From: Escherichia phage A6-6
Length of the DNA stretch: 64,000 nt
Direction: 5' to 3' (one strand)
Sequence record: PQ510734.1
Each line of letters begins with the position of its first letter. The stretch's first letter is position 1. Of the stretch, positions 19,156 to 20,954 are shown piece after piece. The position numbers were made by a program, and so were the translations under genes. The notes beneath the pieces were generated by a model, which had not been told where the DNA came from, made no database searches, and saw only the letters and a list, made by a program, of their open reading frames with translations.

Positions 19156-19764
19156 ATGAAAATGCAAAGTGATTTCAATTCAATGTTTGAAGAGTTCCAA
19201 AGACAGGTTGATGTTCCAGACCAATTACTAAATGCTCTTAAACGTATGGCAGAAGGACGTAATTATTATTGGGGTTCTTCATATGAAACTGATGAAAGTC
19301 TTTCTGGAAGATTTTCCAGAGGTAAAAAGTCTTTAATACGTCCTGGAATACTTATTAACAGTATTGAATCAATTCATTTATTGACGTGTGATTTTGATGT
19401 TGAATTTACTGATTTTGTTTCTCCTGAATGGACAGTATGTTATTTAAACGACGATTATGATTATCTCGGCATTTATAGTTTAAGTGACGCATGGTTTAAA
19501 CGTAATTTACAAAAGTCAAATTTATTCTATATTGATACTACGGTAAAATTTCAGGGAAAGAAATATTTCTTTACTCTTATAGTTGACTCTGAAACAAAAT
19601 ATGAAAATAAGCGTATTCTTAGTAAAAAGAATATCTTAACTATTGTTGATGATCTTTTTGATAAATTCGTAGAAAATCCCAATTTTGAAAGCGATTTATT
19701 ACTAGAAAAATTTGTGAAGGAATGCAGAGAATATGTCAAAGCCATCAATGTATCTTCCAAGTAA
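19156..19764 (+). CDS. Hypothetical protein, first of four tandem ORFs sharing a C-terminal FVxECR motif
   Basis: 202-aa ORF ending ...EKFVKECREYVKAINVSSK. Confidence 0.5.
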   Translation: MKMQSDFNSMFEEFQRQVDVPDQLLNALKRMAEGRNYYWGSSYETDESLSGRFSRGKKSLIRPGILINSIESIHLLTCDFDVEFTDFVSPEWTVCYLNDDYDYLGIYSLSDAWFKRNLQKSNLFYIDTTVKFQGKKYFFTLIVDSETKYENKRILSKKNILTIVDDLFDKFVENPNFESDLLLEKFVKECREYVKAINVSSK

Positions 19765-20125
19765 ACCCTTAAAGTATGAATTAAAGCGCCAGCTAATTTC
19801 TACTGATGTATTAATAGGTCCTGTTATACTCATATCATTTGTAATTCTATTGATTATTGGAGGTGTTTTAGATGTTATGACTGATATTGATTCTGGCGAA
19901 ATACTTGTGTTAATGCTAATTCTTCCATTAATAGTTCCACTTTTATTAGTACCCGTAAATTGGGTAGGATACTGGTATCAAGGAAGACATTATCGTAAAC
20001 GCGTACGTGATTGGAAAGCACAGTGTAAAAAGATTAAAAAGGAACATCAGCTTAAACTTGCTGCGTATGAATTTGATGAAATTATGAAATTTGTTAAGGA
20101 ATCACGATGCAAAAGCCAAAACTAA
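19733..20125 (+). CDS. Predicted membrane protein (paralog family, C-terminal FVKESRCK)
   Basis: 130-aa ORF with two hydrophobic helices; start overlaps previous gene. Confidence 0.5.
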   Translation: MSKPSMYLPSKPLKYELKRQLISTDVLIGPVILISFVILLIIGGVLDVMTDIDSGEILVLMLILPLIVPLLLVPVNWVGYWYQGRHYRKRVRDWKAQCKKIKKEHQLKLAAYEFDEIMKFVKESRCKSQN

Positions 20126-20469
20126 ATAAAGTCAAATATTCGCTTCCTGAGTCATTTTTAATTTTTGCTGTGGCGTTGGCTGCAGCTCTTGCGGGTAGTC
20201 TTTTTGGATTGTTAATTGACTGTCTTATTTTAAACATTGACGGAACAGTAAATATAATAGAAGTTTGGAGTGAACTTCACTATACTAAAATTATTTCATT
20301 ATTTTCATTCTTTGGTACTATGTTATATTTTCATTATGATAATTTTAAAATAAATTGGCAAAGAAAAAAAGATTACAAAATACAATTAAAGGAATATAAT
20401 AACTACATGTCTTATATTGAAAAAGAATCAATGGAAGAGTTTGTGAGTGATTGTAGGAAAATTAAATGA
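20107..20469 (+). CDS. Predicted membrane protein (paralog family, C-terminal FVSDCRKIK)
   Basis: 120-aa ORF with hydrophobic helices. Confidence 0.5.
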   Translation: MQKPKLNKVKYSLPESFLIFAVALAAALAGSLFGLLIDCLILNIDGTVNIIEVWSELHYTKIISLFSFFGTMLYFHYDNFKINWQRKKDYKIQLKEYNNYMSYIEKESMEEFVSDCRKIK

Positions 20470-20954
20470 TTTTAAAAACTCGCTGGTATGATTTAGATGA
20501 TGGGGACGATGGCATTTCAGTTGATAGAGTTGACTGGAGCGGCTGTTCTGAAGATACAAAGAAACGATTAATTAGGGAGTTTAGAATGGGATATCAAGCA
20601 GTTAAGCCATCTACTGTAACAGATGATAAATTCGTGTGTATTCAAAATGGTCGTGCTAAGTTAACGAACGCTGATTGGTTCACAGATAAGAAGGTTATTC
20701 TGTGGTATATTATTAGTTTTCCTGTGACATCATTTGTATTTTGCTTCTTTGGAGAAAGTCCAGTAGGCAGAACGGAAGATTGGATTCTTTTAATTATACT
20801 TGTTAATATTTTTACAGCAGCAGTACTATCAGGAATATGGTGCGTGTTCATTGAAATGCCATGGCGGCTACGCAGACAACAAAAGATTTTTGATGAAAAG
20901 AAATATACTCAAAATTTAAATAACTTTATCACTGAATGCAGGAAATTAAAATGA
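20466..20954 (+). CDS. Predicted membrane protein (paralog family, C-terminal FITECRKLK)
   Basis: 162-aa ORF with hydrophobic helices; ATGA overlap with previous gene. Confidence 0.5.
   Translation: MILKTRWYDLDDGDDGISVDRVDWSGCSEDTKKRLIREFRMGYQAVKPSTVTDDKFVCIQNGRAKLTNADWFTDKKVILWYIISFPVTSFVFCFFGESPVGRTEDWILLIILVNIFTAAVLSGIWCVFIEMPWRLRRQQKIFDEKKYTQNLNNFITECRKLK

Follow-up and report, generated by a model that had tools for sequence, protein, structure and literature searches.

Why do four consecutive genes of a T4-like phage end in similar short peptides, and why do these peptides coincide with the ribosome-binding site (RBS) of the gene that follows? These questions are raised by positions 19,156 to 20,954 of a 64,000-nucleotide stretch of Escherichia phage A6-6 (record PQ510734.1; the whole stretch is referred to below as the window), which encode e.5, e.4, e.3 and e.2 as a series of overlapping open reading frames (ORFs) upstream of nudE. 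A sequence-only reading of this stretch described a common FVxECR-like C-terminal tail in the four ORFs, and we verified both their coordinates (Table 1) and their endings. The genes were already known; the new detail is a C-terminal tag, conserved and dual-coding, by which four or five orphan proteins of T-even phages can be grouped. The explanation that we tentatively prefer is an old common docking helix, present on the soluble e.5 and on several membrane-anchored early proteins, that is dual-coded with translation signals and occasionally becomes a deletion site.

A shared C-terminal tail

The four proteins end in FVKECREYVKAINVSSK (e.5), FVKESRCKSQN (e.4), FVSDCRKIK (e.3) and FITECRKLK (e.2), with a helical consensus of about 14 residues, E-x-x-[LIM]-[ENK]-x-F-[IV]-x-[ED]-C-R-[KE], in which the cysteine is replaced in e.4. 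Among the ORFs of at least 100 amino acids (aa) in the window, the pattern F[VI]xx[CS]R is found in these four genes and at a single additional site, at 45273, located 23 residues from the stop codon. A hidden Markov model (HMM) of the tail, with 15 columns and built from Tequatrovirus, Mosigvirus and Dhakavirus sequences, was compared with 3173 six-frame ORFs from the window and the remaining 105 kb of T4; the carriers scored 18.7-24 bits and every other ORF 6.4 bits or less. The circularity of this test was addressed by leave-one-family-out profiles, with which e.5 (13.4 bits), e.3 (7.8 bits) and e.2 (14.6 bits) each came first among the ORFs that had not been used for training. The sharing of the tail is beyond chance for e.5, e.3 and e.2, and is marginal for e.4 when judged by the tail alone. 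Although the definition of this short motif followed its observation, a fortuitous likeness of the four C-termini, short as they are and encoded in AT-rich DNA, has a negligible probability, considering the 12-bit gap to the next best of the 3173 ORFs, the recovery of three families when left out of the profile, the maintenance of the motif in three genera and the existence of further carriers. Across 97 unique e.4 sequences, variability is lowest in the tail (0.13 bits, versus 0.6-1.25 bits in the transmembrane (TM) hairpin and loop), a conservation that is partly owed to the overlap with e.3.

The orthologues in Mosigvirus and Dhakavirus retain the tail, and these genera possess additional carriers with two TM segments, namely gp120 (RB69ORF133c), an e.2-like and an e.4-like protein. 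In the Mosigvirus PhAPEC2, e.5 ends in FIMECREYVKANPVHAN, e.4 in FVKEIRCKSLNS and e.3 in NFIKECRK; the corresponding Mosigvirus motifs are FIMECRE in e.5 and FVKEIRC in e.4, together with NFIKECRK (e.3), NFIKECRGK (gp120) and FITECRNLR (e.2-like), the last three directly followed by the stop codon. The gp120 protein, of 101 aa and with two TM segments, ends in NLENFIKECRGK. In Dhakavirus, the e.5-like protein ends in FIAECREYAKEVQNV, with the motif FIAECREY, and the e.4-like, e.3-like and e.2-like proteins end in FIKEVRNGTA, FIKECKS, and FIKECRK or FIEECRK, respectively. Genomes of the three genera encode 3-5 carriers each and deletion variants 2-3, down to UFV10, where just e.5 and an e.4/e.2 chimera bear the tail. 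An e.5-type soluble protein and at least one membrane-anchored carrier are present in every genome examined. All carriers found, including those from the tail-profile scan of Mosigvirus and Dhakavirus, which covered ±7 kb around e.6, are located between e.6 and nudE, and in these two genera they are interspersed with unrelated genes.

A profile of the two TM segments plus the tail, searched against 1.84 billion representative proteins, yielded 12 matches, 11 of which are T-even e.2, e.3, e.4 or gp120 proteins or their fragments, the twelfth being a marginal hit (E = 4.6e-4) to an unrelated protein of 1264 aa; no distant family or host mimic was found in this set. Judging from these searches, the group of tail proteins appears to be confined to Tequatrovirus, Mosigvirus and Dhakavirus.

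Two further C-terminal features were observed in the same neighborhood. A soluble Dhakavirus protein of about 109 aa (contigs L004, 325-654; L008, 5486-5836; L019, 10143-10472) ends in DNDKLFLEYCRSDVQL, which loosely resembles the tail (F-L-E-Y-C-R), scores below the reporting cut-off of the tail profile and is possibly a degenerate carrier. Right after the e.3 tail in Mosigvirus and Dhakavirus, 3-5 tandem small ORFs (65-151 aa) share a second C-terminal tail, G-[AG]-W-[VI]-[SA]-S-S-x-x-C followed by the stop codon, with the variants GAWVSSSALC, GGWVASSHTC, QGWVSSSYSC, FWFNSSMSC and KIWYPSSC; this Cys-terminal tail defines another tandem family.

The tail peptide and the Shine-Dalgarno sequence

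The sequence-only reading further claimed that the conserved tail overlaps the Shine-Dalgarno (SD) sequence and the start of the downstream gene. This is indeed the case: every tail in the window contains an SD hexamer 5-10 nucleotides (nt) before the next ATG (19733, 20107, 20466 and 20951), with AAGGAA encoding K-E in the e.5 and e.4 tails and AGGAAA encoding R-K in the e.3 and e.2 tails. Nevertheless, the tail is under selection at the protein level because synonymous codons of the motif vary (TTT/TTC for F, TGC/TGT for C, AGA/AGG/CGA/CGT for R) and because the Dhakavirus e.5-like gene keeps F-I-x-E-C-R-E-Y in a motif without GGA, the next ATG being located 40 nt downstream with its own AAAGAGG.

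Co-variation of the two signals was examined by tabulating 30 distinct junction sequences. Junctions with K-E or E-E at positions +2 and +3, encoded by AAGGAA or GAGGAA, have the next ATG 17-22 nt from the F codon. In Tequatrovirus e.3 and e.2, K-E is replaced by S-D, I-D or T-E; there, the SD is the AGGAAA within R-K, two extra codons are present and the ATG is at +26. This shift of the SD to R-K, with two added codons, once K-E is lost, shows that the tail is dual-coding. In gp120, the K codon is AAA and the SD (GAGGAAAA) comes after the motif. Taken across the junctions, the peptide is conserved with or without a hosted SD, and where the SD is hosted, both signals co-evolve.

The overlaps of 32, 19, 4 and 4 nt, with the SD inside the upstream ORF, conform to the architecture of a coupled operon; the tail-borne SD probably couples the translation of successive cistrons. 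The 4-nt overlaps of e.3/e.2 and e.2/nudE are of the ATGA kind known from translationally coupled cistrons, and the other two, of 19 and 32 nt, are longer. Stop-start overlaps with an SD in the upstream ORF are ordinary for T4; unlike in those, the same conserved peptide hosts the SD at each junction of this series, and the SD moves as the peptide changes.

It could be argued that the tail is a by-product of translation signals, either through the spelling of the SD and start or through a nascent peptide that tunes termination and re-initiation, since no tail is more than 40 nt away from the next ATG, most tails hold an SD in their K-E or R-K codons, and the position of the SD co-varies with the peptide. 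We consider this highly improbable: F, [IV], C and R are located outside any SD; the motif persists in the Dhakavirus e.5-like gene, without GGA and with a separate SD for the distant start, and in gp120, with AAAGAA and an SD after the motif; the RNA structure of the junctions is unremarkable relative to shuffled sequences (z = -0.9 to +1.1); and the motif is absent from other overlapping T4 genes. The distance from the motif to the stop codon varies from 1 to 16 codons, which excludes a fixed nascent-chain position for e.4 and e.5 and makes a nascent-peptide effect on termination unlikely.

Relatedness of the tail proteins

Profile-profile comparison with hhalign, with which pairwise BLASTP agrees, aligned e.4 with e.3 over 111 columns (P = 1e-5); with the tail removed, the best remaining alignment of this pair, at the N-terminus, was not significant (P = 0.005). 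The e.3-e.2, e.3-gp120 and e.2-gp120 alignments (P about 1e-5) are confined to 13-18 columns of the tail, and e.5 aligns with the other carriers in the tail alone. The e.4, e.3, e.2 and gp120 proteins share an architecture, namely a TM hairpin, an aromatic (W)/basic cluster, a helix and the tail, and the N-termini of e.4 and e.3 are alike (MSKP... and MQKP...). These similarities make common descent of e.4 and e.3 likely, whereas a common descent of the remaining two-TM carriers with this pair is only plausible.

Accordingly, one alternative to a docking helix holds that the carriers are divergent tandem paralogues only, such that an ancestral two-TM gene was duplicated and the tail is its slowest-evolving remnant, without a common partner. 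The alignment and the similar N-termini of e.4 and e.3, the single architecture of e.4, e.3, e.2 and gp120 and the adjacency of the genes all favor this explanation. Nevertheless, we regard it as somewhat unlikely because no pair, including e.4-e.3, is significant after removal of the tail, because e.5 is soluble and unrelated to the others except for the tail, and because a functionless remnant would not remain the most conserved part across three genera while the R and C codons change.

The sequence-only reading had allowed that the junction similarity might be explained solely by generic RBS composition, in proteins that are similar in no more than the last few residues. The second half of this reservation holds, inasmuch as there is no significant similarity past the last ~15 residues; the first half does not, because the tail exceeds generic RBS composition.

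Junction DNA and the loss of e.2

The description of the junctions as near-identical at the DNA level was overstated. The 18-nt motif is identical at 13-14 of 18 positions between the genes, and among 5995 pairs of 90-nt gene-start windows, only the pair e.3|e.2 and e.2|nudE is exceptional (local score 19.5 over a 61-nt alignment, top 0.4%), the remaining junction pairs ranging from the top 3% to the top 67%. The exceptional pair forms an imperfect 61-nt direct repeat that brackets the 489-nt e.2 cassette. In T2, UFV-AREG1 and others, e.2 is missing exactly: e.3 ends in FVSDCRKLK, that is, the e.3 body with the e.2 ending, and the TGA of this chimeric gene overlaps the ATG of nudE (ATGA). The e.3 and e.2 tails of T4 both carry TGCAGGAAA, then (A)TTAAA(A)TGA, and the T2-type crossover lies within that run. 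The T2 form represents a deletion because e.2 is ancestral there, as an e.2-like gene is located one gene upstream of nudE in Mosigvirus and Dhakavirus.

Among 60 evenly sampled records (of 452), 8 gave an unbroken match to a 200-nt probe for the T2 junction, whereas the probe split into two pieces about 685 nt apart in the other full-length matches listed; in tblastn searches, e.3 was found in 498 Tequatrovirus records and e.2 in 447. The e.2-less fraction is thus roughly 10% of Tequatrovirus records. The e.2-less junction is found with two different alleles of e.3, FVSD and FVID, a hint at more than one origin of the deletion or at later allele exchange.

Deletions between short direct repeats are typical of T4, as known from classical studies of rII and the e region. 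The loss of e.2 is of this kind, joining two 9-bp identical runs within a longer imperfect repeat; it is exactly in frame and preserves the downstream start because the repeat arises from the common peptide and RBS of the two genes. In this manner, a common functional motif creates in-frame deletion hotspots, and accessory genes then behave as cassettes.

Other rearrangements in the array have endpoints away from the tails. In UFV05 and UFV10 (P0112; L007, 2414-2734), an in-frame e.4/e.2 chimera is joined at TCCTGT in TM1 and keeps the two TM segments and the tail. In a Mosigvirus contig (L018, 8540-8720), e.3 is a pseudogene with an internal deletion of ~250 nt that retains the tail and the downstream SD. 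The e.4 variant P0124 (69 aa) lost both TM segments in frame, and the T4 reference e.2 contains a frameshift. In this reference (L001, 3867-4355), e.2 encodes 102 aa owing to a one-base difference in an A-run (ATAAAAATCC versus ATAAAAAATCC in UFV10), attributable to either a mutation in the laboratory strain or an error in sequencing; most relatives encode an e.2 of 162 aa, and the copy in the window is also full length.

The DNA of the tails is more similar between orthologues across genera (26-29 of 36 nt) than between neighbors in the same genome (16-23 of 36 nt). This pattern places the origin of the tails before the split of the three genera, and concerted evolution or gene conversion of the tails, which would have produced clustering by genome in the identity matrix, is rejected.

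These observations bear on the possibility that the cassettes were built and reshuffled by repeated recombination at the tail, SD and ATG, with the tail kept mainly as a recombination site. Compatible with it are the exact loss of e.2 inside TGCAGGAAA in T2, UFV-AREG1 and about 8 of the 60 sampled records, on two e.3 alleles; the continuation of the 61-nt repeat around e.2 into the following gene, where it is read in another frame; the unrelated genes that adjoin the e.3 tail in Mosigvirus and Dhakavirus; and the presence of the same tail on soluble and membrane proteins that are otherwise dissimilar. Yet, the tail DNA groups by orthologue and is not homogenized, three of the four junction pairs are ordinary at the DNA level, most other indels in the array are away from the junctions, and the 9-bp identity is that of an ordinary T4 short-repeat deletion, requiring no dedicated site. 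Moreover, the synonymous sites of the motif vary, whereas a DNA recombination signal would be nucleotide-conserved. In our view, this possibility is unlikely. The junction can be the site of a deletion of the usual T4 short-repeat type, and building of the array in that way is not supported by these comparisons. Of the array by repeated recombination that the sequence-only reading proposed, what stands is that the junction was used at least once, in the loss of e.2; assembly by this route is unsupported, in view of the orthologue clustering, the indels elsewhere and the unexceptional junction pairs.

As a separate observation from the gene-start comparison, the 90-nt windows at starts near 14509, 25012, 29209, 33028, 34461 and 59800 are very similar to one another (scores 22-27, above the 99.9th percentile), and may share early-promoter cassettes or cassettes of the PeSL kind discussed below.

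Membrane topology and a model of tail function

In agreement with the sequence-only assignment of three of the four proteins as multi-pass membrane proteins, hydropathy profiles show two strong hydrophobic segments in e.4 and e.2, and one strong and one weaker segment in e.3. The AlphaFold model of e.3 (pLDDT 85.6) is a two-helix hairpin that consists of helix 13-45, a short loop helix and a continuous helix 58-119, in which TM2 runs on as a single helix into the tail. Basic residues are found beside the cytoplasmic ends and acidic residues in the loop, from which we infer an N-in/C-in topology with a cytoplasmic tail. By hydropathy, charge and the e.3 model, e.4, e.3, e.2 and gp120 are all predicted to be two-TM, N-in/C-in proteins with a cytoplasmic helix that leads to the tail; the soluble e.5 lacks this feature, and its tail is predicted to be helical.

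Under the docking-helix reading, one face of a helix would carry a small hydrophobic patch made up of [LIM] (position -3), F (0), [IV] (+1) and C (+4), which, with the invariant Arg that follows, is a candidate docking surface. Through it, e.5 and the anchored proteins would bind each other, or a single shared partner, on the cytoplasmic side of the membrane; in the predicted inner-membrane proteins e.4, e.3 and e.2, the second TM helix would extend far into the cytoplasm, with the tail at its end. The tail codons double as the SD of the next cistron, as is apparent from the sequences, and this arrangement would couple translation of the cistrons. Together with the following starts, the tails form short direct repeats, which can become deletion endpoints, as seen in one type of event. 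The e.4 and e.3 genes would have originated by tandem duplication and divergence, with the other carriers retaining the tail only, and the loss, truncation and relaxed constraint of e.2 would fit accessory genes that interact with the host.

Several points weigh against this reading. The e.4 tail, with FVKESR and the Cys two residues later, was not recovered by the leave-one-out tail profile (rank 160). The SD and the overlapping downstream frame must supply part of the tail conservation in e.4 and e.5. Once the tail is excluded, no pair is significant by hhalign (best P = 0.005), similarity beyond ~15 residues being not significant, and the descent of e.2, e.5 and gp120 from a common ancestor with e.3 and e.4 is unproven. 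The e.5 model is of low confidence (pLDDT 58). Finally, the dN/dS of 0.70 for e.2 and its frequent loss make a strict stoichiometric complex unlikely.

A bolder version of the docking-helix reading, which we consider quite improbable, is that a hitherto unrecognized hetero-oligomeric membrane complex of T-even phages assembles through the tails. In such a complex, e.5 would dock on the cytoplasmic helices of e.4, e.3 and e.2 (or gp120) through the Cys/Arg patch, which would possibly be metal-bridged or Arg-modified, and its role would be in host takeover, exclusion or counter-defense. If so, interchangeable anchors would explain the gain and loss of members between strains.

More than 100 genes of T4, e.2-e.5 among them, are of unknown function, and the tail would link four or five of these into one functional group. 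The shared tail provides a precise experimental handle on this group through its F, C and R residues, and the array represents a clean natural case of dual coding, with co-evolution of a peptide motif and an RBS. Current views of phage biology are unchanged unless a function is found for the tail proteins. The shared tail and e.2-e.5 are not discussed in the literature and annotations searched; because the older T4 literature was mostly out of reach, 'undescribed' is a provisional description.

Comparison with known systems

PeSL cassettes are intergenic promoter-terminator units (PMC2839356), each with a strong sigma-70-type promoter and a terminator hairpin, that are conserved at the nucleotide level. 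As in the e.5-e.2 array, they place short repeats at gene boundaries in a nonessential, variable region, and recombination between neighboring copies removes the gene between them. The e.2 deletion has this outcome, the loss of the intervening gene, and the analogy is functional only. The repeat of the array is coding, is conserved at the peptide level and leaves no intergenic space; the genes overlap, and at the junctions no promoter or terminator beyond the expectation from shuffled sequences and no special RNA folds were detected.

The capsid targeting sequence of the T4 internal proteins, MKTYQEFIAE, is an N-terminal address tag that the gp21 protease cleaves after Glu. Similarly to the tail, it is a terminal peptide of ~10 residues, with an F-I-x-E core, on neighboring unrelated T4 proteins; it differs in being N-terminal and cleaved, whereas the e.2-e.5 tail is C-terminal and belongs to early membrane proteins, so that the likeness is one of analogy only. 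The tail was also considered as a capsid targeting sequence or a gp21 site (I-x-E) proper, and this is not supported, given that the internal proteins receive no score with the tail HMM and that V-S-D is found at the core in e.3. In the window, the internal-protein genes at 22011-22328 and 22345-22818 share MKTY(K/Q)EFI(A/T)E, and their starts are the most similar gene-start pair (local score 38.5).

Gene identities and neighboring features

The phage belongs to Tequatrovirus (T4-like phages). For the region 19100-21000, matches were obtained in 504 phage records, with nucleotide identities of 90-97%; for T4, the identity is 93.5%, and the gene order and overlaps are identical. By the T4 annotation, the four ORFs are e.5, e.4, e.3 and e.2, with e.6 upstream and nudE, the lysozyme gene e and internal proteins downstream. 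Their membership in the T4 families is indicated by PHROG E-values of 1e-60 to 1e-108 and by the retained synteny from e.6 to nudE. The four fall into separate PHROGs (2203, 2330, 2604 and 2607) labeled 'unknown function' or 'membrane protein'; in an older GenBank entry, L13089, e.5-e.2 are named msp4-msp7, and precomputed Pfam tags on homologues exist for e.5, e.4 and e.2 (Table 1). The dN/dS values relative to T4 (0.21 for e.5, 0.39 for e.4, 0.23 for e.3 and 0.70 for e.2) indicate that all four are real genes. No match above threshold, to an anti-defense or defense model or to any other, was obtained for e.2-e.6 with the local Pfam, NCBIfam and PADLOC libraries, and sequence searches of the PDB found no relative. 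The label 'sulfurtransferase' that e.4 bears in many NCBI records has no NCBIfam or Pfam support and looks like a propagated annotation error.

Table 1. Positions of the e.5-e.2 genes, their tails and associated features (window coordinates unless a contig is given)
Feature	Position	Strand	Remarks
GC-rich UUCG hairpin	19120..19135	+	between e.6 and e.5; stem_loop in L13089; upstream boundary of the series
e.5	19156..19764	+	202 aa, soluble, no TM segment; T4 annotation, phrog_2607, PF26876
e.5 tail module	19687..19731	+	15 codons, ESDLLLEKFVKECRE; holds AAGGAA 19717-19722 for e.4
e.5 motif FVKECR	starts 19711	+	followed by 11 further residues, overlapping e.4
e.4	19733..20125	+	130 aa, TM 31-49 and 57-75, basic cytoplasmic C-terminal helix; PF26873
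e.4 tail module	20066..20110	+	YEFDEIMKFVKESRC; holds AAGGAA 20096-20101 and the e.3 ATG 20107
e.4 motif FVKESR	20090	+	32-nt overlap of e.4 with e.5, 19-nt overlap with e.3
e.3	20107..20469	+	120 aa, two-TM hairpin; tail FVSDCRKIK; stop overlaps e.2 start (ATGA)
e.3 tail module	20416..20460	+	IEKESMEEFVSDCRK; holds AGGAAA 20455-20460 for e.2
Imperfect 61-nt direct repeat, left copy	20440..20500	+	e.3 tail, ATGA, first ~35 nt of e.2
e.2	20466..20954	+	162 aa; soluble N-terminal ~76 aa, TM 77-95 and 106-124; PF26896
e.2 tail FITECRKLK	C-terminus of 20466..20954	+	stop overlaps nudE start (ATGA)
e.2 tail module	20901..20945	+	KYTQNLNNFITECRK; holds AGGAAA 20940-20945 for nudE
Imperfect 61-nt direct repeat, right copy	20925..20984	+	e.2 tail, ATGA, first ~35 nt of nudE
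nudE (Nudix hydrolase)	20951..21391	+	last cistron of the overlapping series; Pfam NUDIX
ORFs with the second Cys-terminal tail	L003 3357-4151; L008 4216-5255; L018 8700-9494; L019 8980-10112

The upstream neighbor e.6 (18521-19114) has zero nonsynonymous differences from T4 at a dS of 0.15 (dN/dS about 0) and 74-88% identity to its Dhakavirus and Mosigvirus orthologues; the protein appears to be mostly helical and charged. The basis of the label 'host specificity protein', given to e.6 in some RAST-based records, is not evident. The hairpin GGGGCUUCGGCCCC (19120-19135) follows this gene.

At the other end of the series, the RefSeq annotation of T4 starts nudE at an upstream ATG, corresponding to 20936 (MQEIKMKTL...), which lies within the tail codons of e.2 (GAATGC) and is not preceded by an SD. 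This ATG is missing in T2-type phages, which have GATTGC there, and the ATG at 20951 (MKTL...) has AGGAAA 5 nt upstream; judged by these signals, the true start of nudE is most likely 20951 rather than 20936.

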